Origin: a virus
Lineage: Duplodnaviria > Heunggongvirae > Uroviricota > Caudoviricetes
Virus record (IMG/VR): IMGVR_UViG_3300031555_004779
Reading direction: 5' to 3' (one strand)
Length of the DNA stretch: 64,000 bases
Below are positions 18,172-34,686 of this stretch, piece by piece. The position numbers were made by a program, and so were the translations under genes. The notes under the pieces are model-generated. The model made no database searches. It was not told where the DNA came from and saw only the letters and a list, made by a program, of their open reading frames with translations. The stretch's first letter is position 1, and the number at the start of each line of letters is the position of its first letter.

Positions 18172-19493
18172 TAGATCTTCACCTCTATTTTCTTTGTGGC
18201 TCGCTTGTTGCGGTTATCACGTTGAATCTTCTGACAATCTTTACACTGGGAGCAATAGCCTGTTTTCTTGTCTTTTGCGCGAGCAAAATATAGAGGGTCA
18301 CGAGGAAGGCTGCGGCCGCACCGAGAACATTTAATTGTGCCGCGATGGCCAGAGGCTACTTCGGATTCAAGGCGTAGACGTTTTGCAGTGTTGGCGAGTT
18401 TGCGCGGAATTACGTTACGGGCCATATTGCGCAATTGGGTGTCGCTAAGAGTGACATCTTCGGCTTCGAGTGCTTTTTGAATTACGAAGAGATTGCGATG
18501 GGCAACACGTTGTTCAAGAACAAACTACTCTACGTCGGTTAGGTTAGATTCTTCTATTAAACGTTCCAGGTCCCAGCATATTTGCCGCATGTCGGATTCA
18601 GGATGTGCGTAACAGCGTTTGAGCAAGCTAACGTAGTTGTCAAGTAGAGCTAAAATATGGGTGGGGTCTTCATAGTCAAGTTTGTTGTCAGATAATTTCC
18701 AATATATGTGGCCGGTAGCATAATTACGCGGCGCATCTTGTAGTAGAGGTTGTTCGTGGTCGCCGGTATGGGGATGACGTTTGCGGGCGCACCATTCTTC
18801 ACTGGGAAGCCATAAGCCGGTGTCGTGGAGGAAGTCGATTTTGCTATGGGAAGCGGGTTTTACATTAAAGAAATGAAGTGTTGGATTATAAACATCCTTA
18901 ATGTAATATTGTTGGCGACGAAGGTCAATTACAAAGTGACCAAGTTTGTATAACTAATATTTTGATATTGGATGCTCCAGCACCCATTCGTTAGGGGTTT
19001 CGTGGCCGCGATACATACGCAGGCGTTCTTCCCATTTGTCGATGCTGGCCCACAGTTCGCGCATGAAGGGAATTTCATTGCCTTCGTTGTCAAAGTCGTC
19101 ACCACGTTCAAGAATTGAGCCATCTTCGGCGTATTTGGTGCGGCGGATTTCTTGTCTATAAACTTTATAGGGGGATTTGTTTTCTGGCCCTACAGGTTTG
19201 GCAGTGTTTTCTATGTCTTGCGCCACCATTGGGTCTTCCAGCAGGCCGTCAAGGGATTCGTTTGATTCGGCTTTCGTGGTGAAGCTATTGTAGCGGCGTT
19301 TAGGCTAGGATATTTCTTTTGTATCTACTGCGCTTAGTAGGGTATCGTCTTTGCCAAACAAAATGTAGTCAGCCATTTGTTCCAAATCGGTTTGGTTTGG
19401 GTCGGTGTCGAGCTCGTCGATAATTTCACAAATGGCATCACAACGTTCGTCGGCGTAGATGATGTCGTAGTTGAGACTGTATTTTTTTTTCAT
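18171..19493 (-). CDS. hypothetical protein with C-terminal CxxC Zn-ribbons, TAG-containing
   Basis: Pieces 19305-19493, 18954-19229 and 18171-18434 are co-frame. It is the first gene after the leftward promoter. Confidence 0.3.
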
Positions 19494-19577
19494 AGGTTAT
19501 CTTGGGATTCACCTCTTTTTTAAATTTGCGGATGTGGTCTACATAAGAGGTATTTACGATTTTTATTTTATAGGAAA

Positions 19578-21475: not shown

Positions 21476-21494
21476 CTATATGTTTAACATATAG
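21476..21494. promoter_or_regulatory. IPR19 palindrome CTATATGTTTAACATATAG (copy 1). -35 TTGACA at 21503, -10 TATAAT at 21527.
   Basis: Perfect 9-bp arms around a central W. A terminator-like hairpin lies upstream and a promoter lies 8 bp downstream. Confidence 0.6.
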
Positions 21495-21560
21495 TATTTT
21501 TCTTGACAAACAAACTACAAACATGCTATAATAAACCATACTAACAAGGAGGTACAAACC

Positions 21561-21926
21561 ATGTCTCACCGCACTGTTATCCATGCTTCTTTCTACTTCT
21601 CAGCTGACTTCCTGCTGTATAATGACCATGGCCGTGAATTGTTGGTAGTACATGGTGATGACCTTCCTGTTGATGGCGAAGTTGACGAAGCTACTTTCCG
21701 CGCTCTGTTGAAGGATATTCGTGCCAAGGAAAAAGCGCGCTGTCGTGTAAAGTACACTGAAAAGAAAGTTACAGCCGAACCAAAGTTTGACCCTGCACAC
21801 GATGGCTATACTGTTGGGCGTACTTTCGGTGATGGATTTGGCGATGTACAAAAAGCGCTTCGCAATGTAAATAGCGAAACTTATCCTATGACAAAAAGCG
21901 AATGGGCGTTCTCATACTGGGCATAA
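21561..21926 (+). CDS. early protein, hypothetical
   Basis: Cassette gene: AAGGAGG RBS, TAA stop, hairpin GGGCATAAAAACGCCC. Confidence 0.5.
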   Translation: MSHRTVIHASFYFSADFLLYNDHGRELLVVHGDDLPVDGEVDEATFRALLKDIRAKEKARCRVKYTEKKVTAEPKFDPAHDGYTVGRTFGDGFGDVQKALRNVNSETYPMTKSEWAFSYWA

Positions 21927-21944
21927 AAACGCCCTTTATAAAAA

Positions 21945-21963
21945 CTATATGTCTAACATATAG
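21945..21963. promoter_or_regulatory. IPR19 palindrome variant CTATATGTCTAACATATAG (copy 2)
   Basis: One arm mismatch. Confidence 0.55.
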
Positions 21964-22031
21964 TTTTATCACTTTACAATCAAGCGAAAATGTGTTACAA
22001 TACAATCATCAAAGGAAAGGGGTTGCACATC

Positions 22032-22175
22032 ATGAAGAAAAATTATTGGGTCATTATCAAAAACGGTTTTGTAGGTTGCCGCCACTTTATCACAGAAGAC
22101 GACGCAAACGACGCATGCGAGGCCATGAACATGCTTGACCCCGGTTGGATTGTGCAAGGGATTGTGTGCGGTTAA
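22032..22175 (+). CDS. early small protein (47 aa)
   Basis: The promoter -10 TACAAT lies inside the longer track ORF, so the start was taken at the ATG after AAAGGAAAGGGG. Confidence 0.4.
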   Translation: MKKNYWVIIKNGFVGCRHFITEDDANDACEAMNMLDPGWIVQGIVCG

Positions 22176-22192
22176 TCCGCACACAAGAAAAA

Positions 22193-22211
22193 CTATATGT
22201 CTAACATATAG
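22193..22211. promoter_or_regulatory. IPR19 palindrome variant (copy 3)
   Basis: CTATATGTCTAACATATAG. Confidence 0.55.
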
Positions 22212-22278
22212 TTTTAACGCTTTACAAAAAGAAAAAATCATGATATAATAAACCCATCAAATGAAGGAGGTTTTCACC

Positions 22279-22464
22279 ATGACCACCAAATGTTATTTCC
22301 TTGAAAATTCTGATTCTTGCGTCCGCGTCATTGATTACATCACAAATGTTATCCCTTGTTTTATTCGTGAATTGCTTATTGCCAATGATGGTATTACTCT
22401 CACGATTGAATGCCGCGATTATGACCTTGCTTTTGTAGAACGTACCCTTGCGCCCTATGTATAA
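22279..22464 (+). CDS. early small protein
   Basis: RBS AAGGAGG. Confidence 0.45.
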   Translation: MTTKCYFLENSDSCVRVIDYITNVIPCFIRELLIANDGITLTIECRDYDLAFVERTLAPYV

Positions 22465-22482
22465 TACATAGGGCTTAAAAAA

Positions 22483-22501
22483 CTATATGTTTAACATATA
22501 G
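22483..22501. promoter_or_regulatory. IPR19 palindrome (copy 4)
   Basis: CTATATGTTTAACATATAG. Confidence 0.6.
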
Positions 22502-22568
22502 TTTTACCTATTTACAAAAATGCCAAACTGTGTTATACTTATACCATCAAGAGAGGGAGGTATCCACC

Positions 22569-22760
22569 ATGGGTAAGGTAGTCTATTTCGAGTCTGGCGT
22601 TGTTATGGAGTTTAATAAGGAGTACTCTAACCGTAAGCATGTCCGCGAGACCGTGCGGCTGGAGCAAAGCTGGCACAAGGAACGTTTTGGGCGTGCGCCG
22701 CGTGTACGTTATGCGCGCCCGTGGAAACGTGACGAAGTGAATCCCTATTGGAGATGGTAA
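22569..22760 (+). CDS. early small basic protein
   Basis: RBS GGGAGG. Confidence 0.45.
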   Translation: MGKVVYFESGVVMEFNKEYSNRKHVRETVRLEQSWHKERFGRAPRVRYARPWKRDEVNPYWRW

Positions 22761-22777
22761 CATCTCCATTACAAAAA

Positions 22778-22796
22778 CTATATGTTTAACATATAG
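22778..22796. promoter_or_regulatory. IPR19 palindrome (copy 5)
   Basis: CTATATGTTTAACATATAG. -35 TTTACA lies 8 bp downstream. Confidence 0.6.
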
Positions 22797-22882
22797 AAAT
22801 AAGTATTTACAAAAACGAAAAAATGTGATATTATATACTTGTCCGAAGGGGACAAACAAAAAAATGAAAAGAGGTAAAAAAC

Positions 22883-23158
22883 ATGACTATGAACTTTAAC
22901 GCCAAGGAAGCCAACAAGACCACCAACGCCACCCGTGAAGCCCAGCAGGAACGTGCCCGCAAGTGTGCAGAAATCCACGTTGAACAGATGATTGAACCCA
23001 TGATTAAAGACGCCGCCAATCGTGGCGAAAATAACGTGGATGTTCATTTCCATAATTCCACCGTCGGTCTGTATGGGAACATCAATGTCATTCTTTGTGA
23101 AAACGGTTTTGAAACTTCTTTCAATCGTGAGCGCACTTGCTTGCACATCAAATGGTAA
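22883..23158 (+). CDS. early protein, hypothetical
   Basis: RBS AAGAGGT. Confidence 0.45.
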   Translation: MTMNFNAKEANKTTNATREAQQERARKCAEIHVEQMIEPMIKDAANRGENNVDVHFHNSTVGLYGNINVILCENGFETSFNRERTCLHIKW

Positions 23159-23182
23159 GCGCTTCGGCGCTTACTTAAAAAA

Positions 23183-23201
23183 CTATATGTTTAACATATA
23201 G
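23183..23201. promoter_or_regulatory. IPR19 palindrome (copy 6)
   Basis: CTATATGTTTAACATATAG. Confidence 0.6.
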
Positions 23202-23285
23202 AAATAATGATTGACGTTTTAGAAAAAATATGATACAATAAGACCATCAAAAAGGGGTTAACCCCAAAAGAAAGGAAGTCCCACC

Positions 23286-23609
23286 ATGAAAAAGATTTTT
23301 GCCCTGATTCTCTCCATCGCTCTTATTCTGTCCTGTGCCTCTGCCTCTGCTCGTACTGCTTTCGATGCCAACCGCGAAAAAATTCATTTCGTCGTACTTG
23401 ATTATGATGATGAAGCAGACGAAACTTTCACCGCCGTTTGGACTTTCAAAACGGTTATCAGCAAGATTGAGAAGGGCGAAAACTTCTTCGAACTTCTCGC
23501 GATGGAATGCGATGGTTTTATCCCTTGCCGTTGGGAAGTTGATGCAAATGGCAATGGCCACATCTATTCCACATTGGATGACCACGAAATCACACCGGAA
23601 ACTTGGTAA
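23286..23609 (+). CDS. secreted or lipoprotein-like early protein (signal peptide with ILSC lipobox)
   Basis: N-terminus MKKIFALILSIALILSCASA. Confidence 0.5.
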   Translation: MKKIFALILSIALILSCASASARTAFDANREKIHFVVLDYDDEADETFTAVWTFKTVISKIEKGENFFELLAMECDGFIPCRWEVDANGNGHIYSTLDDHEITPETW

Positions 23610-23632
23610 AGGGCGAAAGCCCTTTATAAAAA

Positions 23633-23651
23633 CTATATGTTTAACATATAG
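23633..23651. promoter_or_regulatory. IPR19 palindrome (copy 7)
   Basis: CTATATGTTTAACATATAG. Confidence 0.6.
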
Positions 23652-23734
23652 AAATAGGTATTTACTTTTTCCGCATATGGTGCTATAATAAAGACACTCC
23701 AAAGGGAGAATAAAAACATTCGGAGGTCAAGACC

Positions 23735-23971
23735 ATGAAAATCACTATCACTTCTATGATGCTTTGCGAACTGTGCGGCGGCAAGTTTACCTATGAGGCT
23801 TGCGAGGCTCTGTGCGACTGGTTCGAAGAAACAGCTGACCGCGACTTCGCCCCGGCCATCGGCGACATCTGCGTATCTTACAGCGAGCTGAGAGCTGAGG
23901 ATATTGATGAGGATGATGAAGAAAAAATCATTGCTCATTTGAACAATGGCAACGTACTGATTGCGCTTTAA
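23735..23971 (+). CDS. early small Cys-containing acidic protein
   Basis: RBS GGAGGT. Confidence 0.45.
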   Translation: MKITITSMMLCELCGGKFTYEACEALCDWFEETADRDFAPAIGDICVSYSELRAEDIDEDDEEKIIAHLNNGNVLIAL

Positions 23972-23987
23972 GCGCAATCTTACAAAA

Positions 23988-24006
23988 CTATATGTTTAAC
24001 ATATAG
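23988..24006. promoter_or_regulatory. IPR19 palindrome (copy 8)
   Basis: CTATATGTTTAACATATAG. Confidence 0.6.
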
Positions 24007-24076
24007 AATTAAACCTTTACAATTCTAATTTTTCATGCTATAATGAATCATACAAAAAAACAAGGAGGTTCCCACC

Positions 24077-24358
24077 ATGATGACCATCAGCACCACCCAC
24101 GAACACGGCTCCAACAAAGTTTACTACCGCGTAGAAACCCGCAAGGACTGGAAAGAAGCCTATCAGCTGATTCGTTACAAAGCGAATGCAAAAACGCTGA
24201 GCTACATCATCCACAATGGCCTCATCTATCACTGCATCCCGTGGGGCGAAGGAATCTATGAACACGCACAGAACGCGCCGCACAACGAAAAGCACAGCCG
24301 TTGGGCAATCGCACAAAGCACGCGCCGGCTTTACATTTACGATAAAATGGGGTTGTGA
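24077..24358 (+). CDS. early protein, hypothetical
   Basis: RBS AAGGAGG. Confidence 0.45.
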   Translation: MMTISTTHEHGSNKVYYRVETRKDWKEAYQLIRYKANAKTLSYIIHNGLIYHCIPWGEGIYEHAQNAPHNEKHSRWAIAQSTRRLYIYDKMGL

Positions 24359-24376
24359 AAACAACCCCTTAAGTTT

Positions 24377-24395
24377 CTATATGTTAAACATATAG
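24377..24395. promoter_or_regulatory. IPR19 palindrome (copy 9, central A)
   Basis: CTATATGTTAAACATATAG. Confidence 0.6.
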
Positions 24396-24464
24396 TTTTG
24401 TCTATTGACTTTACCAGGTACGCATGTTATAATAAGTCATACCAAAACGAAAGGGGATCCCACC

Positions 24465-24758
24465 ATGACCAACACTATCAACTCCACCACTCTCCGCACC
24501 ATCTACGACAATCTGTCTGCCGAATCTCGTGCCACCATTCTGTTCATCCTTGACATCGAACTTCGTAATAACATCAATGATGAAGAAGTGTTTGAGCGTT
24601 GGCTGCAGTGCGGCGTGCCGGACGGCTGCATGACAGTCAAAAACGTACAGGAATACATGGACACCGAAAACATGACATGGGAAGAATTTGAAGAATATAT
24701 TCTTCTCGCCGCCAGTTGCTTTGAGATGGATAATGAGGAGGAAGAAGAAGATGAATAA
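24465..24758 (+). CDS. early acidic protein
   Basis: The start was taken after RBS GAAAGGGG. The upstream part of the track ORF overlaps the -10 element. Confidence 0.45.
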   Translation: MTNTINSTTLRTIYDNLSAESRATILFILDIELRNNINDEEVFERWLQCGVPDGCMTVKNVQEYMDTENMTWEEFEEYILLAASCFEMDNEEEEEDE

Positions 24759-24879
24759 TCCTTATTGGTTAATCAGGTTCGTTCAGCGCTATGTAAAGGC
24801 CGAAGGTTGGTTTGACATTATCATTCTTCTCGCAGCGTTTGTTGTGGGAATATATGTAATGGTAGTTAGTTTCATCTAA
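24751..24879 (+). CDS. small membrane protein (42 aa), overlapping the upstream gene
   Basis: ATG lies inside GAAGATGAAT. One hydrophobic helix. Confidence 0.35.
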   Translation: MNNPYWLIRFVQRYVKAEGWFDIIILLAAFVVGIYVMVVSFI

Positions 24880-24897
24880 CTACCAATACTATTAAAA

Positions 24898-24916
24898 CTA
24901 TATGTTAAACATATAG
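24898..24916. promoter_or_regulatory. IPR19 palindrome (copy 10)
   Basis: CTATATGTTAAACATATAG. Confidence 0.6.
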
Positions 24917-24984
24917 AATTGATTGTTGACTTTGTAATACTTTTCTGTTATACTTATACCATCAAATGATGGAGGTGCCCCGCC

Positions 24985-25200
24985 ATGATGAATGAGTGTG
25001 AGGTTCGCAACTGTGGTTACTGGTATCAGGACGAGTACGAAGAACGCCCCTCTTGTCACTATAACGACCATCGCTTCCCTGCTCCTTGTGAAGAGGACGA
25101 CAGCTGCGATGATGACTACTGGGACGATTTCGAACCCGACGACATCGACAGCGATGAAGGCTTTGACCCGTATGAAGGTTGCTTTACATTTGACTGTTAA
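24985..25200 (+). CDS. early Cys/Asp-rich small protein
   Basis: RBS GGAGGTG. Confidence 0.45.
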   Translation: MMNECEVRNCGYWYQDEYEERPSCHYNDHRFPAPCEEDDSCDDDYWDDFEPDDIDSDEGFDPYEGCFTFDC

Positions 25201-25224
25201 CCGCCTTTTGGCGGTTCTTTAGAA

Positions 25225-25243
25225 CTATATGTTAAACATATAG
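25225..25243. promoter_or_regulatory. IPR19 palindrome (copy 11)
   Basis: CTATATGTTAAACATATAG. Confidence 0.6.
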
Positions 25244-25252
25244 TTTTCTCTC

Positions 25253-25281
25253 TTGACTTCCTATATAGGGTATGTTATAAT
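25253..25281 (+). promoter_or_regulatory. promoter of the ORF-less cassette
   Basis: TTGACT, 17 nt, TATAAT. Confidence 0.5.
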
Positions 25282-25287
25282 CCTATT

Positions 25288-25460
25288 GTCGAAAGAAAGA
25301 AAGGACGGGTGAGAGCCAATGGGTTAGGCGTACGGCCACTTGATGCTAAGTGGAGCGACGAATACTTGTGCCGCAAGCATCTGCGGGTCACTTCGGGAGC
25401 GGCGACCGAAGCTGGCATATGAGCCGTGCCACCCAGTGTCCGGAAGCTGGGTGATTTTTG
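25288..25460 (+). ncRNA. candidate promoter-driven non-coding RNA (about 170 nt, GC-rich, structured)
   Basis: Full cassette architecture, but no ORF with an RBS. Several 5-6-bp stems. It ends in the hairpin CCCAG..CTGGG followed by TTTTT. Confidence 0.4.
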
Positions 25461-25471
25461 TATGCTGGAAA

Positions 25472-25490
25472 CTATATGTTAAACATATAG
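25472..25490. promoter_or_regulatory. IPR19 palindrome (copy 12)
   Basis: CTATATGTTAAACATATAG. Confidence 0.6.
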
Positions 25491-25557
25491 AATTAAAGAT
25501 TGACATACTTTTTCTTTTGTGATACAATAACATCATCAAAGGAAAGGAGCGACCACC

Positions 25558-25872
25558 ATGACCATCACCATCAGCAAACTCACATTCTCCAACCACTTCT
25601 GCACTGACCGCCGTGACAGATACGAAACCATTCGGCGCGTAGGCTTCGGCCAAATCGTAAAACAACAATGGTACAACGGTTGCTGGCACTGCCTCACCGA
25701 CATGGGCGTTATGCTGGTAGTTGACGAAGCTGGCAATTATTGTATGACCGCTTACTTTGCAGACTGGGTTGAAGTAAACCGTATCTATCAGGGCAACGTG
25801 CCGCGAGCAATGAAGAAACGCATTGACCGCAATATTTCTTATGGATATACGAAAGCGAGGTATAAGGGATAA
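25558..25872 (+). CDS. early protein, hypothetical
   Basis: RBS AAAGGAGCG. Confidence 0.45.
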   Translation: MTITISKLTFSNHFCTDRRDRYETIRRVGFGQIVKQQWYNGCWHCLTDMGVMLVVDEAGNYCMTAYFADWVEVNRIYQGNVPRAMKKRIDRNISYGYTKARYKG

Positions 25873-26039
25873 TGGATTATGGAAAATTTATAGGCACAAC
25901 AAGCGGCGTATCGGGACTTCGCGCCTTACTTTCCAATTATGAAGGAGCAAATTTACGTTTTGCTTCTAATGATTATGGTGATTCTTGTATGGTAGAAATT
26001 TGGTACGATTCGTCTACCAATACCATCACGCTTGCCTAA
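25872..26039 (+). CDS. small protein (55 aa), translationally coupled through a TAATG overlap
   Basis: Hand translation gives MDYGKFIGTTSGVSGLRALLSNYEGANLRFASNDYGDSCMVEIWYDSSTNTITLA. A hairpin follows. Confidence 0.35.
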   Translation: MDYGKFIGTTSGVSGLRALLSNYEGANLRFASNDYGDSCMVEIWYDSSTNTITLA

Positions 26040-26056
26040 TAGGCAAGCAAATAAAA

Positions 26057-26075
26057 CTATATGTTAAACATATAG
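26057..26075. promoter_or_regulatory. IPR19 palindrome (copy 13)
   Basis: CTATATGTTAAACATATAG. Confidence 0.6.
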
Positions 26076-26172
26076 TTTTCTTTTGAATTTGTTGTTGACT
26101 TCTTCCCAATATGTGATATAATAAGATTGTCCAAAGGGACAAGAAATAAAAAACAGAAAGAGGTTATCAACT

Positions 26173-26598
26173 ATGGCAAAACTCAGCAAGCAGGTTAAGG
26201 ATTACATGTGGAGCAAGGTTCGTGAACGCATGGATGCGGTGCTCGCCCCGCTGAATGAACAGGTGAAAGCTGAAGAAGAGCACATCAGTGAAGTTCTGAC
26301 CACAGCAAAGGAAAAAGCCAATGAACTGTTTCAGTCCATTCTGAAAGCTGAATTCCCTGAACAGTGGAAGGAACTGGAAGAGAAGTGCACCAGCGATTAC
26401 TACACCCGTCTGCCCCGTGCTACTACCAGTGATACCCACATGATTCATTCCCTTGCTCGCCCCGAGCGCGACAAGAAGAAGAAAGAAATGGAAGAATATG
26501 CCAACAAGTTCATGAATGAACTGTTCATGGATGTTGAACTCGGCGCTGTCAAGAAAGATGAAATTCTGAACGCGCTTTCCAAGTTGGAGTTGGGCTAA
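26173..26598 (+). CDS. early protein, hypothetical (coiled-coil)
   Basis: RBS AAAGAGGT. Confidence 0.5.
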   Translation: MAKLSKQVKDYMWSKVRERMDAVLAPLNEQVKAEEEHISEVLTTAKEKANELFQSILKAEFPEQWKELEEKCTSDYYTRLPRATTSDTHMIHSLARPERDKKKKEMEEYANKFMNELFMDVELGAVKKDEILNALSKLELG

Positions 26599-26623
26599 TG
26601 CCCAATTCCTTTTTATAGTAAAA

Positions 26624-26642
26624 CTATATGTTAAACATATAG
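26624..26642. promoter_or_regulatory. IPR19 palindrome (copy 14)
   Basis: CTATATGTTAAACATATAG. Confidence 0.6.
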
Positions 26643-26727
26643 AAATAAAGGTTGACTCTATATTTAAAAGGTGATATAATAAAGACGTTCCAAAGGGGAC
26701 AAAGAATAAAAGAAAGAAGGTTATCCC

Positions 26728-27321
26728 ATGTATTTCAAGACTTACAAGCCCGCCACCCTCGCTGACAACTCCGCTCGTGCCCGTGCCGCTCACATCCTCA
26801 ACGCCGTTGCTCGCCACACCAATGTGTTTGACCCTTCCTTTGAAGATTACGCAGATTATATCTACGAAAAGAAGTTGACTTTCCGCGACCGCGCCCTCAT
26901 CATCGGCGAAGAAGAACGCTGGCTGGAAGAGCTGAAAGTTGAATGGGACAACCTCATGGAGCTTGTCAAAGAATCCAAGAAGCCCACTTGCGCCACCAAG
27001 GGTCATTTCGCTTATTTCCTCATTTTCAATGATGGTTTTGTGAAGAACGGCGAAACCAACAATATTGCTTCTCGCTATTCTCAGTTGAGCAGTGAGCACG
27101 ATGGTATCAATCACATGTGGTACATTGAACTCAACAACGAAGAAGAGCGCAAACTCGCTCAGCATGCCGTTCACAATGTGTTTGACCATTCCCGCGCCAT
27201 GAATCGCGCCATGGGCAAACAGGATTATTATCAGAGCGAACTTGAAACCGCGAATCGTTTCATGACTACCCATAAGGGACAAATCTGGCGCGCTATCATG
27301 GACGCAATCGGGGAGGAGTAA
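26728..27321 (+). CDS. early protein, hypothetical (197 aa)
   Basis: RBS AAGAAGGT. The hairpin GGGGAGGAGTAATCCTCCCC follows. Confidence 0.5.
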   Translation: MYFKTYKPATLADNSARARAAHILNAVARHTNVFDPSFEDYADYIYEKKLTFRDRALIIGEEERWLEELKVEWDNLMELVKESKKPTCATKGHFAYFLIFNDGFVKNGETNNIASRYSQLSSEHDGINHMWYIELNNEEERKLAQHAVHNVFDHSRAMNRAMGKQDYYQSELETANRFMTTHKGQIWRAIMDAIGEE

Positions 27322-27337
27322 TCCTCCCCTTATAAAA

Positions 27338-27356
27338 CTATATGTTAAACATATAG
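27338..27356. promoter_or_regulatory. IPR19 palindrome (copy 15)
   Basis: CTATATGTTAAACATATAG. Confidence 0.6.
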
Positions 27357-27422
27357 AATCTTTTCTTGACTTCTTAACAATTTTCTGATACAATATAACC
27401 ATCAACAAAGGAGGTTGAACCC

Positions 27423-27554
27423 ATGAACCGTTACGAAGTCTTTGAACACATCACTAACAAACACATCTGCGTACTGCTTGCCACCAACTATGCCGAAGCA
27501 TGGAGTATCGCAGAATCTCACGGATGGTATCCCAATAATTATTATATTGTGTAA
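27423..27554 (+). CDS. small protein (43 aa)
   Basis: RBS AAAGGAGGT. Confidence 0.4.
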   Translation: MNRYEVFEHITNKHICVLLATNYAEAWSIAESHGWYPNNYYIV

Positions 27555-27567
27555 GGAGCTGAGAAAC

Positions 27568-27978
27568 ATGGAAGAACTTATTGGCTTAAGCGTTATCCTT
27601 GGTATATTTGTTGTGGCTGGCCTTATCGGCTGGGGCGCGAGCGCTTTGTATAATATTTACTGGAAATATCGTGTCAAAAAGAACCGCATCAATCATCCTA
27701 AACTGATTGAACTTCAAAAAGAACGCGAAAAAATGTGCGAAGAATACAATCAATGGTGGGATGAAAGACATGAAGCAAAAAAGCGTATTGACAAATACAT
27801 GGAAGAAATCAAATACCATGAAGAAGATGTAACCAAAAGTTTTTTGGAAGCAATCAAACAAGAACAGCAAATTTATTCCAACGCCGACAAACACATGAAA
27901 GAACTTTCTCCCTTGGTTGATGCCGCACGTGAAGCAGAGCAAACATACCGCGAAGAACATAACATCCGCCACTGGTAA
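27568..27978 (+). CDS. membrane-anchored coiled-coil protein
   Basis: N-terminal transmembrane helix LSVILGIFVVAGLIGWGASALY, then a charged helical region. Confidence 0.45.
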   Translation: MEELIGLSVILGIFVVAGLIGWGASALYNIYWKYRVKKNRINHPKLIELQKEREKMCEEYNQWWDERHEAKKRIDKYMEEIKYHEEDVTKSFLEAIKQEQQIYSNADKHMKELSPLVDAAREAEQTYREEHNIRHW

Positions 27979-28000
27979 TTTTTACCAGTGGTTCCAAAAA

Positions 28001-28019
28001 CTATATGTTTAACATATAG
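28001..28019. promoter_or_regulatory. IPR19 palindrome (copy 16)
   Basis: CTATATGTTTAACATATAG. Confidence 0.6.
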
Positions 28020-28090
28020 AAATAAATTTGACATTTACAAAATTTTTTGATACAATAAATATACTCCAAAAGGAAAGGAAGGAAACCACC

Positions 28091-28276
28091 ATGACGAACT
28101 TTGAACGCGAAGAAAACCGAATCACTTTTGAATCTCAGAACGCACAGCGCTATGCTATGGCGCAGGTTGAGTGTGGTGCTTGGGATGCTGACTATGCGGA
28201 AGCATGGCTGTCCAATCGTCTTCAGCATCTGCAAGCTGAATGGAATGAACTGCATGACGAGCTGAAAGGAGAATAA
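28091..28276 (+). CDS. early small protein
   Basis: RBS AAGGAAGGAAACC. Confidence 0.45.
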   Translation: MTNFEREENRITFESQNAQRYAMAQVECGAWDADYAEAWLSNRLQHLQAEWNELHDELKGE

Positions 28277-28278
28277 GT

Positions 28279-28437
28279 ATGCCACTTATTACGCTTTTCC
28301 TCTCTATTATTTTTGGCGTGGTTGCTTTTGGTCTTATACTTTGCGCCACTGAAGATAACTATTGGTATTGGGTTCCCGCGGTATGCTTTGGCTTTTGGGC
28401 AGTTGTAGGATTTTTGAAATTCCTTGCAATGTGTTAA
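28279..28437 (+). CDS. small membrane protein (52 aa)
   Basis: Two hydrophobic helices. Its stop codon lies inside the second palindromic motif. Confidence 0.4.
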   Translation: MPLITLFLSIIFGVVAFGLILCATEDNYWYWVPAVCFGFWAVVGFLKFLAMC

Positions 28438-28448
28438 AATTTTAACAA
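28431..28448. promoter_or_regulatory. second palindromic motif, copy 1 (TGTTAAAATTTTAACA)
   Basis: Perfect 8-bp arms, upstream of the -35 of gene 28522. Confidence 0.5.
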
Positions 28449-28521
28449 TGTAAAATTTTTCCATCCGCTTGACAAATGTGTCCATCTATGATATAATATA
28501 TATGTAAGGAGTGATGATGAT

Positions 28522-28716
28522 ATGGAAACTCGCAACTATTATGTGCCTCGTTCTCATTATGCCAAGATGGTTATTGACCGCATTGTGTGTCTTGTGCCGT
28601 GTTGCGTGCCGAACATCGTGCCGAAAGATTACGATTGTTTAGTTGTATCCTTCACTTGTCATCCTCGTTATTATTCTATCGTAGAAACGGTACTCAAACA
28701 GGAAGGTTGGCTTTAA
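28522..28716 (+). CDS. early Cys-rich small protein
   Basis: RBS AAGGAGTG. Confidence 0.45.
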   Translation: METRNYYVPRSHYAKMVIDRIVCLVPCCVPNIVPKDYDCLVVSFTCHPRYYSIVETVLKQEGWL

Positions 28717-28734
28717 TCGGCCAACCGACCTAAA

Positions 28735-28753
28735 CTATATGTTAAACATATAG
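28735..28753. promoter_or_regulatory. IPR19 palindrome (copy 17)
   Basis: CTATATGTTAAACATATAG. Confidence 0.6.
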
Positions 28754-28833
28754 TATTTCATTTTCAAAAAGGATTGACAAAATCCTATTTCCATGTTAGA
28801 ATAAACCATCCCAAAACGAAAGGCGGTTATCTT

Positions 28834-29289
28834 ATGAAACTGACTGTAATCCTCGACATGGACGGCACAATTGCTGACCTCTACAAGGTGGAAAACTGGC
28901 TCGGCAAACTTCGCAACTTTGACCCTTCTCCCTACATTGAAGCATCTTTGATGGTGGCTGGTATCGCAGAAGCTGTCAAGGCAATTCGTGAAGCAGGCGC
29001 GGAAGTTAAGGTTGTAAGCTGGCTGAGCAAAGAAACCAATTCTGACTTTGACAAGCTCGTGCGCAAGGCCAAGCGTGATTGGCTTGCTGAACAGGGCATT
29101 GAGGTTGACAGCGTGCGTTGTGTCCCCTATGGCACACAGAAAGCATACTATCGCAATCCCGAAAACATCAACATTCTGTTTGATGATAATGCCGAAGTGC
29201 GTGAAAGTTTTGAAGGATTCAACAACTGTTTCGCCCTTGACCCCACCGAAAACAACATTGCAGAAGTGTTGAAGGAACTGATGGCGTAA
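28834..29289 (+). CDS. HAD-superfamily 5'(3')-deoxyribonucleotidase-like protein
   Basis: N-terminal DxDGT motif (ILDMDGTIADL) typical of the NT5C-type phosphatase family. The start was taken after AAAGGCGG because the promoter lies inside the longer track ORF. Confidence 0.5.
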   Translation: MKLTVILDMDGTIADLYKVENWLGKLRNFDPSPYIEASLMVAGIAEAVKAIREAGAEVKVVSWLSKETNSDFDKLVRKAKRDWLAEQGIEVDSVRCVPYGTQKAYYRNPENINILFDDNAEVRESFEGFNNCFALDPTENNIAEVLKELMA

Positions 29290-29305
29290 GCCATCAGTTA
29301 TAGAA

Positions 29306-29324
29306 CTATATGTTTAACATATAG
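29306..29324. promoter_or_regulatory. IPR19 palindrome (copy 18)
   Basis: CTATATGTTTAACATATAG. Confidence 0.6.
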
Positions 29325-29337
29325 AAATATTGGGCAC

Positions 29338-29355
29338 TTGTTAAAAACTTAACAA
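29338..29355. promoter_or_regulatory. second palindromic motif, copy 2 (TTGTTAAAAACTTAACAA)
   Basis: TTGTTAA-N4-TTAACAA, sitting between the IPR19 copy and the promoter. Confidence 0.5.
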
Positions 29356-29430
29356 ACTTTATGCTTGACACAATAACCAAAGTGTGATACAATCATAGTG
29401 TCCTAAAAAGGACAGAAAGGAATTGATACC

Positions 29431-29832
29431 ATGCCTAAGAAAACCGTATCGCAGATGCGAACCGAAACCCGTGATAACTTCATGAAAGAAGTTATGGAAC
29501 TCCTGCAAATCCACAAAGGGGATGACACCTTACCTTATAAGGGCAACGCATTCTCCGTCCCTCGCACCCTTGAAAACGGTGATGAAATCTATGTACAATT
29601 AACCATCAGCATTCCTACTGGCACCCGTGATGGCAAGCAGTTTGACGGTTATGAAGAGCATGAAAATTACATGCTTGAACAGGAAGAAAAGCGAATCGCC
29701 GCCGAAGAACGAGCCGCCGAAAAGGCAAAGCAGACCGCAGAGCGCAAGGCAAAGCAGGAAGCCGCACGCAAGAAGCGCGAAGAAGCCGAAGCCGCGAAGA
29801 AAGCACGAAGGGAGGAAAAGGCGGTGGAGTAA
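29431..29832 (+). CDS. early protein with a K/E/A-rich charged C-terminal helix
   Basis: RBS AAAGGAATTG. Confidence 0.45.
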   Translation: MPKKTVSQMRTETRDNFMKEVMELLQIHKGDDTLPYKGNAFSVPRTLENGDEIYVQLTISIPTGTRDGKQFDGYEEHENYMLEQEEKRIAAEERAAEKAKQTAERKAKQEAARKKREEAEAAKKARREEKAVE

Positions 29833-29853
29833 TCCACCGCCCCACAATCCCAC

Positions 29854-30084
29854 ATGAAATACTACAAAGTATTGTGCGAACGTGCGCATGTGGGTAAAGG
29901 CCGAACAGCTTACATAACGTTCTATTATGAAGCAGAAAACGCTTTACACGCAATGAACAAAGCAAAATGCCAACGCGGAACGAAGCGAAGCAAACTTCCG
30001 TTAGGTTGTCAAGAAGTATCCAAAGAGGAATATTTGGAAAACATTTCCACTTCTGCTTATGTACGAGCAGGTGTGCGCGATTGA
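29854..30084 (+). CDS. small basic protein
   Basis: Follows the upstream gene with no strong RBS. The hairpin GTGCGCGATTGAGCGCAC follows. Confidence 0.35.
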   Translation: MKYYKVLCERAHVGKGRTAYITFYYEAENALHAMNKAKCQRGTKRSKLPLGCQEVSKEEYLENISTSAYVRAGVRD

Positions 30085-30100
30085 GCGCACATCTTTGAAA

Positions 30101-30119
30101 CTATATGTTTAACATATAG
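30101..30119. promoter_or_regulatory. IPR19 palindrome (copy 19)
   Basis: CTATATGTTTAACATATAG. Confidence 0.6.
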
Positions 30120-30194
30120 AAATAAAGTTTGACAAACACAAAAATTTGTGATATTATATATACGTTCCTAAGGGAGCAGAAAGGAAGTAAGAAT

Positions 30195-30401
30195 ATGTGG
30201 ATTGGCGAAAAACGTCCGATGCGAAAATGGTATTTCACTCAGGTTTGGATAGAATGGAAGGAAAAGCCCGAAGATGAACTTTCTTTGTCTCTCATCCCCT
30301 TGCGCGCCTACCTCGATGGCGTTCTCGCTCGTTGGTTTAATCCTGATTTTACCTTTCAATTCAAGCTTGTTCCTCCATGGAAGATTCAGTTTACTGAATA
30401 A
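30195..30401 (+). CDS. early small protein
   Basis: RBS GAAAGGAAGT. The hairpin GTAGGCGTAAGCCTAC follows. Confidence 0.45.
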   Translation: MWIGEKRPMRKWYFTQVWIEWKEKPEDELSLSLIPLRAYLDGVLARWFNPDFTFQFKLVPPWKIQFTE

Positions 30402-30420
30402 GTAGGCGTAAGCCTACCGT

Positions 30421-30497
30421 GGGCAGTTGGCGCAATCGGTTAGCGCGGCAGTCTCATAAACTGTTGGTTCTGGGTTCAAGTCCCTGACTGCCCACCA
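30421..30497 (+). tRNA. tRNA-Met (or Ile2), anticodon CAT
   Basis: Acceptor GGGCAGT/ACTGCCC. Anticodon loop CTCATAA. T-arm GGTTCAAGTCC. Encoded CCA. Confidence 0.75.
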
Positions 30498-30519
30498 AAA
30501 ATTTTCTTCAAAAAAAGTA

Positions 30520-30548
30520 TTGACAAACTAAAAAGTTTGTGATACAAT
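30520..30548 (+). promoter_or_regulatory. promoter for the Leu/Lys tRNA pair
   Basis: TTGACA, 17 nt, extended -10 TGTGATACAAT. Confidence 0.5.
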
Positions 30549-30639
30549 ATGATTGTAAGGTTGAGGAAAGGAAATGCCTTATGAAGCATGACTTGCTCTG
30601 CTTCGGCGGTATCGTGAAAAACTCCGAGCCGCCAATTAT

Positions 30640-30723
30640 GCGGGTGTGGTGGAATAGGCAGACACAGGAGACTTAAAATCTCCCGCTTCGTGCGTGCCGG
30701 TTCGAGTCCGGCCATCCGCACCA
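30640..30723 (+). tRNA. tRNA-Leu, anticodon TAA (type II, long variable arm)
   Basis: Acceptor GCGGGTG/CATCCGC. Anticodon stem GGAGA/TCTCC with loop CTTAAAA. T-arm CCGGTTCGAGTCCGG. Encoded CCA. Confidence 0.7.
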
Positions 30724-30794
30724 TTCTGCTTATGCAGATGTATCTGTCAAGGCGACGTAGCACCTCACGACCCGGCGTGTAATCCGGGACAAAC

Positions 30795-30870
30795 GCGCCA
30801 TTAGCTCAGGTGGTAGAGCACGTGACTTTTAATCACGGTGTCCGGGGTTCGAGTCCCCGATGGCGCACCA
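30795..30870 (+). tRNA. tRNA-Lys, anticodon TTT
   Basis: Acceptor GCGCCAT/ATGGCGC. Anticodon stem CGTGA/TCACG with loop CTTTTAA. T-arm GGGGTTCGAGTCCCC. Encoded CCA. Confidence 0.75.
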
Positions 30871-30877
30871 AATTAAA

Positions 30878-30896
30878 CTATATGTTTAACATATAG
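30878..30896. promoter_or_regulatory. IPR19 palindrome (copy 20)
   Basis: CTATATGTTTAACATATAG. Confidence 0.6.
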
Positions 30897-30981
30897 ATAT
30901 CTTGCTTGACACAATACCTAAATCATGATACAATATAATCACTCCAAAGGGAGAAAGAAACTAAGAAAGGAAGTATCTACT

Positions 30982-31410
30982 ATGGCACCTAATGGAATCG
31001 TTCGTCGCATTGATGATCTCGGTCGTATCACTATCCCCAAGGAAATTCGTCGCAACATGGGACTGAATGACGGTGATGCGTTGGAAATTAACTACAATAA
31101 CAATGGCGTTATTTCCATTCGCAAGTACAAGAAGTCTTTCGAGCAGTGTGCGATTGACTGGTACAACAAGGCTATCAATGTCCACGATAACAGCAGCCTT
31201 GATTTTCACTATTTCCGTCATACTGACTTTTGGTATCGCGGCGATTATACTTTTTGTGTAGTCGGCCATACCATTCCCAATTTCGTTCAGCGTGGAGGTT
31301 ACGCCAAGCGTTTTGAAGAGGATATCTTTGATGAACGCATTGGCAAGGTTGCCGCCTATGCTCGTGCCATGGGTCGCAAACTCAACAAGATGATTGGGTA
31401 CGAGGGCTAA
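30982..31410 (+). CDS. AbrB/SpoVT-family (swapped-hairpin) DNA-binding regulator with a C-terminal domain of unknown function
   Basis: N-terminus MAPNGIVRRIDDLGRITIPKEIRRNMGLNDGDALEI closely matches the AbrB/SpoVT N-domain (VRKVDELGRVVIPIELRRTLGI..DALEI). Confidence 0.75.
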   Translation: MAPNGIVRRIDDLGRITIPKEIRRNMGLNDGDALEINYNNNGVISIRKYKKSFEQCAIDWYNKAINVHDNSSLDFHYFRHTDFWYRGDYTFCVVGHTIPNFVQRGGYAKRFEEDIFDERIGKVAAYARAMGRKLNKMIGYEG

Positions 31411-31427
31411 TGCCCTCCCCAACTTAA

Positions 31428-31446
31428 CTATATGTTTAACATATAG
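31428..31446. promoter_or_regulatory. IPR19 palindrome (copy 21)
   Basis: CTATATGTTTAACATATAG. Confidence 0.6.
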
Positions 31447-31529
31447 AAACAACTATTGACTTCATAAAATAACAATGATATAATATTATCGTTCCCAAGA
31501 GAGAGGAACAGAAAGGAAGGTATCCCCAA

Positions 31530-32525
31530 ATGTTCGCAGTCGTTATTGGTATTCTCCTCATCATCGCCGCTATTGCTATTCCCTTTATTACTAATGGTAT
31601 GGGCTATAAGGGTGGCGGTATTGGCTCTGTTATCTGTCTGATTCTCGCCGCGGTTATCATTACCCTGTCCTGTATCTCCACCGTTCCCACTGGCCACACT
31701 GGTATTCTCACTACGTTCGGCCGTGTTGAGGACAAGAATCTTCCCGAAGGTATGAACTTCCATGCTCCGTGGCAGAGTATTACTACCATGACCAATAAGG
31801 AACAGACCAGCACCGAAACCAATATGTGTTTCTCCGCTGACTTGCAGGAAGTTGCCTATACTTACACTACGAAGCATAGTCTGCTTGCTTCTGCCGCGCC
31901 TAACATTTATAAGACCGTAGGTACTGACTATTACAATATCCTCATTGTGCCGCAGGTCAACAACGCCATCAAGGCAGAGTTTGGTTTGGTTGAAGCAGAA
32001 AATATGACTGAACTGCGTACCCAGCTTCAGAAGAACATCAATGACAAGGTACAGACTTTTGCTGATAAGTATGGTATCAACGTTACCGTTGTAATTGATG
32101 ACTTTGACTTCTCCGATGCTTATACCAATGCCATTGAAGCCAAGCAGGTAGCCGAACAGGAAGCCCTGCGCGATAAGACCCAGCAGCAGATGGAAACCGA
32201 GCGCGCTCGTCAGCAGGCAGAACGCACGAAGATTCAGGCCGAAAACGATGCCGCTATTCGTGAAATCAATGCCAACGCCGATGCGGAAGCCGCGCGAATT
32301 AAGGCACAGGCCGATTTTGAAGTCGCCCAGCTTGAAGCCGATGCCATTGCTTACAAGGGCGAAAAGGAAGCCGAAGCAACTGCCGCTCTTGCCGCCGCTA
32401 TTACCGATGAAGTTGTCGCGTATGAATATGCGCAGAACTGGTCTGGTGAACTTCCCCAGTATATGATGGGCGGTACTGGCGCTCTGCCTATCATTGATAT
32501 TCCCATGAATACGGAAGAGGAGTAA
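31530..32525 (+). CDS. SPFH/band-7 (stomatin/HflC-like) membrane protein
   Basis: Two N-terminal transmembrane segments. SPFH core start TGHTGILTTFGRVED..PEGMNFHAPW. Long AEAxA coiled-coil tail. Confidence 0.6.
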   Translation: MFAVVIGILLIIAAIAIPFITNGMGYKGGGIGSVICLILAAVIITLSCISTVPTGHTGILTTFGRVEDKNLPEGMNFHAPWQSITTMTNKEQTSTETNMCFSADLQEVAYTYTTKHSLLASAAPNIYKTVGTDYYNILIVPQVNNAIKAEFGLVEAENMTELRTQLQKNINDKVQTFADKYGINVTVVIDDFDFSDAYTNAIEAKQVAEQEALRDKTQQQMETERARQQAERTKIQAENDAAIREINANADAEAARIKAQADFEVAQLEADAIAYKGEKEAEATAALAAAITDEVVAYEYAQNWSGELPQYMMGGTGALPIIDIPMNTEEE

Positions 32526-32549
32526 TCCTCTTCCTTTTTTAATTTCATT

Positions 32550-32568
32550 CTATATGTTAAACATATAG
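32550..32568. promoter_or_regulatory. IPR19 palindrome (copy 22)
   Basis: CTATATGTTAAACATATAG. Confidence 0.6.
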
Positions 32569-32664
32569 TTTTATTTCAAAATAAGTATTTACAAATCCCA
32601 AAACCTATGATATACTTATATCGTTCCTAAGGGGAACGGAAATAAAAGAAAGAAGGTAAAACAC

Positions 32665-33285: not shown

Positions 33286-33303
33286 TCACCCTTCTTTTTT
33301 ATT

Positions 33304-33322
33304 CTATATGTTAAACATATAG
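33304..33322. promoter_or_regulatory. IPR19 palindrome (copy 23)
   Basis: CTATATGTTAAACATATAG. Confidence 0.6.
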
Positions 33323-33419
33323 TTTTATTTGAAAATTCTTATTGACTTTCCTATAATATGTGATATAATGAATATGTCCTTAAGGAAAGGACATAATAAA
33401 AAGAAAGAAGGTACTTCAC

Positions 33420-33863: not shown

Positions 33864-33867
33864 ACCA

Positions 33868-34128: not shown

Positions 34129-34154
34129 AACCACAGTTTCTTTTTTATGAGAAA

Positions 34155-34173
34155 CTATATGTTAAACATATAG
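34155..34173. promoter_or_regulatory. IPR19 palindrome (copy 24)
   Basis: CTATATGTTAAACATATAG. Confidence 0.6.
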
Positions 34174-34189
34174 AATTAAAAGAGTGGAA

Positions 34190-34603: not shown

Positions 34604-34667
34604 GATATAGCACCTTCCTTTCGTGATATAGTATATCATGTTTAGTGTTGCTTGTCAACAAGAAAAA

Positions 34668-34686
34668 CTATATGTTAAACATATAG
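34668..34686. promoter_or_regulatory. IPR19 palindrome (copy 25), serving the minus-strand cassette
   Basis: CTATATGTTAAACATATAG. Confidence 0.6.

Follow-up and report, generated by a model that had tools for sequence, protein, structure and literature searches.

We analysed a 64,000-nucleotide stretch of DNA, hereafter the window, from a virus of the class Caudoviricetes (IMG/VR record IMGVR_UViG_3300031555_004779), and focus here on a short transcription unit within it that very probably is a genuine gene for a non-coding RNA (ncRNA). The unit lies in an array of small early cassettes bounded by copies of a 19-bp palindrome, CTATATGTTAAACATATAG, which occurs 30 times within 21476-38649, where none is expected from shuffled sequences. 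The copies sit some 8-30 nucleotides (nt) 5' of a promoter of the type TTGAC-17-TGnTATAAT. A sequence-only reading of this DNA had described the unit as a complete cassette (palindrome, promoter and next palindrome) that holds no protein-coding gene, and all three of these elements are present where it placed them. The features of the unit are as follows.

25225-25243, no strand assigned: upstream copy of the array palindrome, forming the cassette boundary and a presumed operator.

25253-25281, plus strand: promoter of sigma-A/sigma-70 type, with TTGACT at 25253-25258, a 17-nt spacer and TG-n-TATAAT with its hexamer at 25276-25281; 11/12 consensus positions and a TG extension.

25288-25459, plus strand: putative RNA gene of about 172 nt, 57% GC, matched by covariance model R1 at 25282-25464 with 217.8 bits.

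25288-25337, plus strand: nearly invariant 5' module of the RNA, comprising a polypurine run, a Shine-Dalgarno (SD)-like element, AUG (25319-25321), GGU (25322-25324) and UAG (25325-25327).

25329-25360, plus strand: hairpin P2, with its apical stem formed by 25336-25341 and 25348-25353 and its loop L2, GAUGCU, at 25342-25347.

25371-25386, plus strand: hairpin P3 (CCGCA/UGCGG), with loop L3, AGCAUC, at 25376-25381, complementary to L2.

25387-25416, plus strand: hairpin P4 (GUCA-CUUCGG ... CCGAAG-C-UGGC), directly abutting P3.

25430-25453, plus strand: intrinsic terminator hairpin CACCCAGU/GCUGGGUG with a C-GNRA-G apex, followed by a U-run at 25455-25459.

25472-25490, no strand assigned: the array palindrome again, ahead of the promoter that serves the following cassette (TTGACA at 25500 ... 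TACAAT at 25528).

The cassette stands apart from the others in the array. A simple scan for an SD sequence plus an open reading frame (ORF) was run over all 29 inter-palindrome intervals, and 28 of them contain an ORF of at least 50 codons, preceded by an SD, that occupies most of the interval. Of these, 26 start with ATG on the plus strand, that of cassette 2 is listed from a TTG, and those of cassettes 24 and 29 lie on the minus strand; all 28 stop at TAA or TGA. Interval 11, which holds the RNA unit, is the sole interval without a cassette-filling ORF, in agreement with the sequence-only reading, and its best candidate is a 37-codon GTG frame with an SD only 3 nt from the start. The GC content of the transcribed part had been put at 60% against 40% for its surroundings. 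The contrast is real but smaller, with 57.3% for 25288-25458 against a mean of 45% (37-52%) for the neighbouring early ORFs and 39.8% for the window.

Judging from the spacing to the promoter, transcription would start at about G25288, and the promoter core and the discriminator CCTATT are kept in all homologues described below. At the other end, the hairpin CACCCAGT...GCTGGGTG followed by ATTTTTG is the sole terminator-like site within 24850-25650. Its predicted folding energy is −14.5 kcal/mol (z = −3.0), and together with the start site it would delimit a transcript of about 172 nt, very close to the roughly 170 nt that had been proposed from the letters alone. The terminator is also conserved as a structure. 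Three of its pairs show compensatory changes, for example CACCCAG/CUGGGUG to CGUUCAG/CUGAACG, and the C-GNRA-G apex is found in 10/10 sequences as either GGAA or GCGA.

Relatives were identified by protein searches with the two small flanking genes, and their contigs were then examined for the RNA. The covariance model R1, built from the first five RNA sequences, was run over 44 loci plus the window. It detects a single copy in the window and in each of L003 (whose RNA body is the same as that of L004), L005, L006, L008, L010, L019, L023, L024 and L025, with 175-215 bits for these nine distinct homologues, all on metagenome contigs. There is no second copy elsewhere on any positive contig, so no paralogues, and no copy in L001/L002, L007, L011-L018 or L020-L022. 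The 19 IMG/VR loci around homologues of the upstream gene, retrieved with an alignment of the upstream protein, also lack the RNA. IMG/VR searches with single neighbouring proteins, or with an alignment of the downstream protein, gave no RNA-bearing relative; a nucleotide search of the INPHARED phages and exact-pattern scans of IMG/VR and GTDB genomes gave no match, and an exact-pattern scan of metagenomes added one new contig, L008.

The usual site of the cassette is between a 71-aa gene and a 104-aa gene. In L005, however, it sits before the homologue of the 71-aa gene, and in L003, L010 and L023 other ORFs intervene. In L022 the 71-aa and 104-aa genes are adjacent with no RNA between them, and the cassette is also missing from the syntenic regions of L001, L007 and L020. 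The downstream neighbour varies as well, being gene B, a 108-aa ORF, the homologue of the 71-aa gene, a 54-aa ORF or a radical-SAM-like ORF, depending on the homologue. These shifts of position, together with the absences from syntenic regions, indicate that the cassette is a self-contained, optional and mobile accessory module.

The homologues allow the structure of the RNA to be examined by comparison. Three hairpins had been named from the single sequence (CCACTT/AAGTGG, CTTCGG/CCGAAG and CCCAG/CTGGG), and all three are real, corresponding to the stems of P2, P4 and the terminator. P2 folds in each homologue tested, with four apical pairs altered on both sides (UA/GC/AU, UG/AU/CG/UA, CG/GC/UA), giving apex variants such as CCACUU/AAGUGG, CCUUCG/CGGAGG and CCGAG/CUCGG. 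P3 has two compensatory stem pairs, one with CG in five sequences and UA in five, the other with AU in five and UA in five (variants CCGCA/UGCGG and CCGUU/AACGG). In P4 the helix CACUUCGG/CCGAAG-UG is swapped outright for a 9-10-bp helix, GCAUGGUAG/CUGCUAUGU, in L005, L006 and L010. We also see that the loops L2 (GAUGCU) and L3 (AGCAUC) are exact 6-nt complements that vary in concert: the L003 type has GGUGUU opposite AGCACC, and in L010 GGUGCU pairs with AGUGCC through two wobble-preserving changes. Assessed outside the covariance model, 98.3% of the cells of this putative kissing helix pair, compared to 32-57% when the partners are slid, and one pair appears as GC in six sequences, AU in three and GU in one. 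Shuffle support for L2-L3 taken by itself is modest (17/500).

Several alignments give the same picture. RNAalifold predicts the hairpins from an independent MAFFT alignment of five sequences, with 12 compensatory pairs. A hand-specified structure consisting of P0, P1a, P2, P3, the L2-L3 kissing loop, P4 and the terminator was then scored on an independent MAFFT alignment. Here 94.8% of cells are paired, against 32-49% with partners slid by 1-3 columns, and 12 pairs are altered on both sides. None of 500 shuffles reaches the paired fraction, the count of two-sided pairs or the covariation score, although the count of further pair types is not above that of the shuffles. On the 10-sequence alignment, which is fitted to the model, 95.1% of cells are paired against 31-50% when slid, and 13 pairs are altered on both sides; a fresh MAFFT/RNAalifold run on the 10 sequences recovers P2, P3, P4 and the terminator with 11 compensatory pairs. 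The proposed check by covariation thus comes out in favour of a folded RNA, with compensatory changes in P2, P3, P4, the terminator and L2-L3. The proposed check by folding the single sequence turned out to be uninformative: the energy is not exceptional (z = −0.86), and the structural claim rests on the comparative data and not on folding energy.

The most conserved part of the RNA is its 5' end, with the sequence GUCGAAAGAAAGAAAGGAYGGGUGAGAGCCA-AUG-GRU-UAG-GCGUACGGCC. Mean pairwise nucleotide identity is 95.4% in this module and 70.5% in the remaining 120 or so nt of the RNA, with 82.4% for the neighbouring gene B. This indicates that the 5' module is the sequence-specific end and that the remainder serves as a structural scaffold. 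Unlike this module, the ordinary leaders of these phages diverge freely. Within it lies a bipartite 13-nt SD, composed of AGAAAGGA (25298-25305), a 2-nt bulge (CG) and GGUGA (25308-25312), which complements a 16S rRNA 3' tail of Bacillus type. The two parts lie 11-25 nt from the inferred 5' end, and a 6-nt spacer separates the SD from the AUG at 25319. With an assumed Bacillus-type anti-SD, the predicted pairing energy is −17.5 kcal/mol, the strongest of 27 cassette start sites, the others ranging from −10.4 to −16.2 kcal/mol. The sequence-only reading had it that the only ATGs of the unit lack ribosome-binding sites. This does not hold for the first ATG, which has the strongest predicted SD of the array, but its frame ends after two codons, ATG GGT TAG. 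All 10/10 homologues retain both the AUG and the UAG, with GGU (eight sequences) or GAU (two) as the codon between them. The invariant stretch runs from about −31 to +19 relative to the AUG, which is about as wide as the footprint of an initiating ribosome, and the stable part of P2 begins 8 nt 3' of the UAG. An open frame after the UAG was considered as a further conserved feature and set aside: the frame meets a UGA in L019, and in so GC-rich an RNA few stops occur in any frame.

The presence of an invariant in-frame UAG is of particular note in this phage, as UAG is the codon it reassigns. Reading TAG as sense joins six consecutive ORFs into one 2329-codon frame (46544-53533, plus strand), restores a 522-codon portal frame, and restores a 599-codon frame (15453-17252) in which large-terminase profiles match residues 72-566; under the standard code the terminase region falls into three fragments of 116-140 aa. 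The recoded stretches are 46544-53533 (plus strand), 13884-17252 (minus), 18171-19496 (minus) and 54014-58478 (plus), and the large terminase, the portal and a sigma-factor-like protein are full length only with TAG read through. The early cassette ORFs have neither a TAG stop nor an internal TAG. No suppressor transfer RNA (tRNA) was found in the window, where the only tRNAs are Met-CAT, Leu-TAA and Lys-TTT. L005, which carries the RNA, also looks recoded (1913-5105, minus strand). The host is probably a member of the Firmicutes. Promoters and SDs are of the Firmicutes type, and portals from large Bacillus siphophages and an uncultured human-faecal phage share 26-31% identity with the portal encoded here.

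The RNA does not belong to any family in the collections searched. Among the 4227 models of Rfam 15, nothing matches the RNA when the whole window is searched at gathering thresholds. At E values up to 10 the Rfam comparison that had been suggested yields only a microRNA model and the terminator hairpin scoring as NsiR1-like, at 18.5 bits where the threshold is 39 bits; neither the 411-nt neighbourhood nor the L005 homologue has a relevant match. The family is new and absent from Rfam 15. ARAGORN calls no tRNA or tmRNA at default or 80% thresholds and only implausible ones at 60-70%, and a CUA in the L2 loop of the window is not conserved among homologues. No repeats of the type III antitoxin kind were seen on reading and aligning the RNA, a point on which no formal test was made. 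In the literature we found no account of such an RNA in recoded phages. The T4 RNAs species 1 and 2 (RNA C/D), encoded beside tRNA genes, are likewise stable-looking small phage RNAs with no known function, but the present RNA lies about 5 kb from the tRNA cluster (30421-30870) and has its own promoter and terminator. A template repeat of a diversity-generating retroelement was also considered and rejected, as the window holds no second copy of the RNA body; that idea was raised by two tail-region proteins at 43299-44528 and 46559-47440, which carry an Mtd_N domain (major tropism determinant, N-terminal) known from targets of such elements.

At the level of sequence, then, the unit has the attributes of a free-standing small RNA (sRNA) gene: its own promoter, its own intrinsic terminator, a conserved structure and no conserved ORF. 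It is likely, though less secure than the existence of the gene, that the RNA is a trans-acting accessory RNA rather than a cis element. For the fuller explanation, a gene with its own transcription and termination whose product, a structured RNA of about 172 nt, acts early and in trans, with a ribosome-binding 5' module as its functional or stabilising end, we see an even chance. Under this explanation, host RNA polymerase would transcribe the RNA early and abundantly from the near-consensus promoter, and its own terminator would release it to act in trans as an accessory function. The 5' module would bind the 30S subunit or 70S ribosome. That the ribosome is the partner of this module is a tentative prediction from the modelled pairing, to which we would give slightly less than an even chance. 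At a minimum, the bound ribosome may shield the RNA from 5' exonucleolytic decay, as is the case for STAB-SD and polypurine stabilisers in Bacillus. The start-stop module would probably be the functional end too, since it is the most constrained part of the RNA. Given a degree of constraint well beyond that of a stabiliser or of ordinary leaders, the ribosome-bound start-stop complex may itself be the functional state, to which we would likewise give slightly less than an even chance. The co-varying scaffold of P2, P3, P4 and the 6-bp kissing interaction would then form a compact, nuclease-resistant body just 3' of the stop codon.

There are precedents for parts of this proposal. The STAB-SD of cryIIIA, the polypurine stabiliser and the protection of hbs mRNA from RNase J1 resemble the RNA in having a purine-rich, SD-like element within about 25 nt of the 5' end and an extended complementarity to the 16S rRNA 3' tail (for the RNA, the best-of-27 pairing on the assumed anti-SD given above). 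The polypurine stabiliser reportedly comes from phage SP82. In Bacillus, SD-like or polypurine 5' elements and initiating ribosomes stabilise RNA against RNase J1 (PMC5737220; also Agaisse & Lereclus 1996 and Hue et al. 1995, both cited in PMC3997798), and in Firmicutes a ribosome bound at such a 5' site shields the downstream RNA (PMC5737220, and references in PMC3997798). The present case differs in that mRNA lies downstream in those systems, whereas here a structured non-coding RNA and a complete AUG-NNN-UAG minicistron do, and in that the element is invariant over about 50 nt, far beyond what a stabiliser needs. A second precedent is found in the bar minigenes of phage lambda, whose toxicity depends on sequestering one specific tRNA as peptidyl-tRNA. 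These too are phage two-codon minicistrons behind an SD (SD-AUG-AUA-UAA; minigene literature such as PMC2490762), and the same order of SD, AUG, one sense codon and stop is present here as AUG GRU UAG in 10/10 sequences. However, the RNA differs in that its sense codon varies, its stop is a reassigned codon, and the minicistron is fused to a conserved folded RNA. The variation between GGU and GAU argues against dependence on a single tRNA of the bar type.

Several points weigh against this explanation. The start and 3' end of the RNA are deduced from promoter spacing and the terminator, and ribosome binding is predicted with an assumed anti-SD of Bacillus type that may not be the host's. The family is narrow (10 sequences, all from metagenome contigs, within one phage clade), so that the covariation events are few and phylogenetically linked. 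The 50 invariant nt exceed the need of a stabiliser, and the stabiliser role can therefore not be the whole story. The invariance of the AUG and UAG is not distinguishable from the invariance of the module as a whole: the chance that the 7 variable sites would miss the 6 AUG/UAG positions is about 0.38. The module can also be folded in two ways, either as a 3-bp 5' hairpin plus a GGU-GNRA-GCC hairpin, or as a hairpin at 25307-25331 with the AUG at its apex plus pairing of the 5' GUCG with CGAC (25356-25359). These folds are incompatible, and the few single-sided changes fit both equally; covariation does not choose between them because the module hardly varies.

An alternative we regard as unlikely is a base-pairing sRNA, wherein the invariant 5' 50 nt serve as the seed for a host or phage RNA while the hairpins and terminator act as a stability or chaperone module. 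The much greater conservation of the 5' end than of the scaffold is what is seen in seed-type sRNAs, and such an RNA would also have its own promoter and terminator. In addition, the (ARN)n-like run GAAAGAAAGAAAG could, we presume, bind Hfq-type proteins. On the other hand, the best duplex in the 64-kb window (−34.6 kcal/mol) is inside the range of shuffled seeds (−33 to −39), there is no minus-strand match of at least 12 nt in the window, and a 50-nt seed would be much longer than known seeds of 6-16 nt.

Rather unlikely, in our assessment, is a protein-binding decoy or anti-defence RNA that sequesters a host defence nuclease, an RNA-binding regulator or an RNase, with the 5' module as recognition site. 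The early accessory genes around the RNA are small and shuffle fast, and one neighbour encodes a very acidic 71-aa protein; this setting would suit such a role, as would the optional and mobile nature of the cassette among relatives. The compact tertiary fold, with its kissing loop and GNRA-capped terminator hairpin, is also consistent with it, and a second GNRA loop may exist in the 5' module, although only under one of the fold models and as GAGG in L019. However, no partner gene co-occurs consistently, and the RNA shows no likeness to CRISPR repeats, ToxI-type repeats, tRNAs or any Rfam family, with no internal repeats seen by inspection.

A device tied to the TAG switch of the phage is improbable. 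The RNA could be a highly expressed mRNA mimic (optimised SD, AUG-GRU-UAG, kissing structure just 3' of it) that holds terminating ribosomes and titrates scarce release factor 1 (RF1) in order to favour read-through of UAG in late genes; alternatively, it could act as a sensor or reporter of the moment at which UAG suppression sets in, when ribosomes reading through would unfold it. The improbability applies to the two versions jointly, and we know of no described RNA of this kind. We hold it equally doubtful that the RNA is something categorically new and tied to genetic-code switching. The appeal of such a device comes from the late genes reading TAG as sense while early ORFs never use it, from a UAG that is invariant in 10/10 sequences although the preceding sense codon is not (GGU/GAU), from the strongest SD in the array, and from the apparent recoding of the RNA carrier L005. 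Read-through stimulators follow a spacing rule of stop, about 8 nt and structure. The geometry of the RNA resembles that of known stimulators, for example the gag-pol UAG and pseudoknot of murine leukaemia virus (MuLV), in that a stable helix in tertiary (here loop-loop) contact begins about 8 nt 3' of a UAG; it differs in lacking conserved coding sequence both upstream, where there are two codons, and downstream. This evidence is purely circumstantial, as the invariance of the UAG is inseparable from that of the whole module. The frame after the UAG is not open in all homologues, given the in-frame UGA of L019; several relatives lack the RNA in their syntenic early region; and the window has no suppressor tRNA.

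A cis-acting leader, either riboswitch or attenuator, that governs read-through of the terminator into the next cassette is very improbable. A structured domain directly before a terminator is indeed the classic riboswitch layout, but a palindrome and a consensus promoter precede the next cassette in every homologue, the downstream gene varies, no conserved anti-terminator alternative is seen by inspection, and no Rfam riboswitch matches. One candidate anti-terminator, UGGGU (25320-25324) with ACCCA of the 5' arm of the terminator, was rejected by inspection, as the arm changes in the L005 type and the partner does not.

It is no more credible, and highly unlikely, that the cassette is a small protein gene, in the form of the 37-codon GTG frame (25309-25422), a 47-codon minus-strand frame, or a frame from the ATG at 25319 under code 15. 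ORFs of 37-68 codons are present, the ATG has a strong SD, and TAG is a sense codon elsewhere in the phage; the recoding is the reason why the ORF argument was re-examined under code 15. The GTG frame ends after about 19-23 codons in 7/9 other homologues, and L024 alone keeps it at close to full length. The P2-P3 linker carries indels of 1-3 nt that change the frame and leave the nucleotides of P4 as they are, and L003 is frame-shifted relative to L008 and L025 where its nucleotides are the same. The longest ORF changes strand and frame among homologues. With TAG as sense, the ATG 25319 frame gives unrelated peptides among homologues and meets an in-frame UGA in L019, and it would cross the terminator, the palindrome and the next promoter. 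Substitutions in the stems are compensatory and not synonymous. No reading frame is conserved among the homologues under the standard code or code 15, and a PHROG search with the 37-aa frame and the neighbouring genes gave no match. With 10 homologues, compensatory hairpins and no conserved reading frame, the earlier non-coding interpretation of the cassette stands.

Least probable of all, to an extreme degree, is a ring like that of the phi29 packaging RNA (pRNA; Phage_pRNA in Rfam), with L2 and L3 pairing between molecules for packaging or some other assembly. Homo-oligomers of large bacterial RNAs assemble through kissing loops. The RNA, at about 172 nt, compares with about 174 nt for pRNA, and both would be early transcripts of about 170 nt from phages of probable or known Firmicutes hosts, in which sequence drifts while structure and complementary loops co-vary; the 98.3% pairing of the two loops does not tell intra- from intermolecular contact. 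Large bacterial RNAs that form homo-oligomeric complexes are known (PMC12286853). Yet neither the pRNA model nor any other in Rfam matches, and there is no co-varying 5'/3' closing helix (helix A of pRNA, which closes a three-way junction), the 3' end being a terminator hairpin instead. Reading through TAG yields a canonical large terminase of full length, in contrast to the pRNA-dependent packaging ATPase of phi29-like genomes, and the phage is not phi29-like, its portal having about 28% identity to those from large Bacillus siphophages. The absence of the optional cassette from the syntenic early region of several relatives also argues against an essential packaging role.

The surroundings of the RNA gene yielded further observations. 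The array palindrome has the consensus CTATATGT(T/C)(A/T)AACATATAG over the 30 copies in the window, each just 5' of a consensus promoter. In L005 (about 9365-9385 and 9615-9635) and L006 a different palindrome, TTAGATGTAnTACATCTAA, takes the equivalent positions, and this swap between relatives suggests an operator that co-evolves with a phage regulator. Relatives differ in the order and content of cassettes, as if whole cassettes were traded as units. Many leaders in the array (22797-23300, 26076-26180, 30120-30200, 30897-31000, 31447-31530 and others) have a short hairpin at the inferred +1, such as GUCCgaagGGGAC or GUUCCuaaGGGAGC, followed by a purine-rich run and then the SD. The 5' end of the RNA itself, GUC-GAAAGAAAGAAAG-GAC, follows the same convention, and these hairpins and purine runs look like 5'-end stabilisers.

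Cassette 25 has two tandem promoters, the first with TTGACT...TATAAT at 34697-34724 and the second at about 34815-34843, ahead of an ORF at 34903. Some 85 nt of untranslated sequence, G-rich and with A-runs, lie between the first and the second, and may represent a regulated leader or else a second short ncRNA. A similar tandem layout, with a near-identical first promoter, is seen in the more distant relative L013 (10460-10660). The cassette at 30120-30877 also holds RNA genes: a 68-codon ORF (30195-30401) is followed by tRNA-Met(CAT), tRNA-Leu(TAA) and tRNA-Lys(TTT), and the identical trio occurs in identical order in L005 (14600-14910).

The upstream neighbour of the RNA gene (24985-25200) encodes the extremely acidic 71-aa protein, with invariant C5, C10, C24, H25, C35, C66 and C71 and a GFDPYEGC motif. 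Homologues (P0005-P0025) are common among related phages, with IMG/VR contigs of 30-190 kb among the carriers. PHROG holds no match to the protein, which may serve in takeover by mimicking DNA or by binding zinc. Elsewhere in the early array of relatives, a gene with a MazE-antitoxin domain (AbrB/SpoVT type) stands beside a Band_7/SPFH gene (L010 13349-13762, L005 15012-15428, L019 6487-6882 and L011 4835-5116), and the Band_7 gene of the window is at 31530-32525.

Overall, well-supported structured ncRNAs are few in phages, and almost none are known from stop-codon-recoded phages. The RNA brings together an unusual set of features, namely an invariant and very strong ribosome-binding site with a start-stop frame on a reassigned codon, a fast co-varying kissing-loop scaffold, and an early accessory site in a recoded phage. 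As a clonable object of 172 nt, it opens the question of how early phage RNAs engage the host translation machinery, and it raises a second one, whether recoded phages use RNA besides suppressor tRNAs to manage the code switch. Even if the 5' module were only a stabiliser, the family would be a new RNA fold, and it would show that an ncRNA can fill a shuffling promoter-gene-terminator module of the phage early region.

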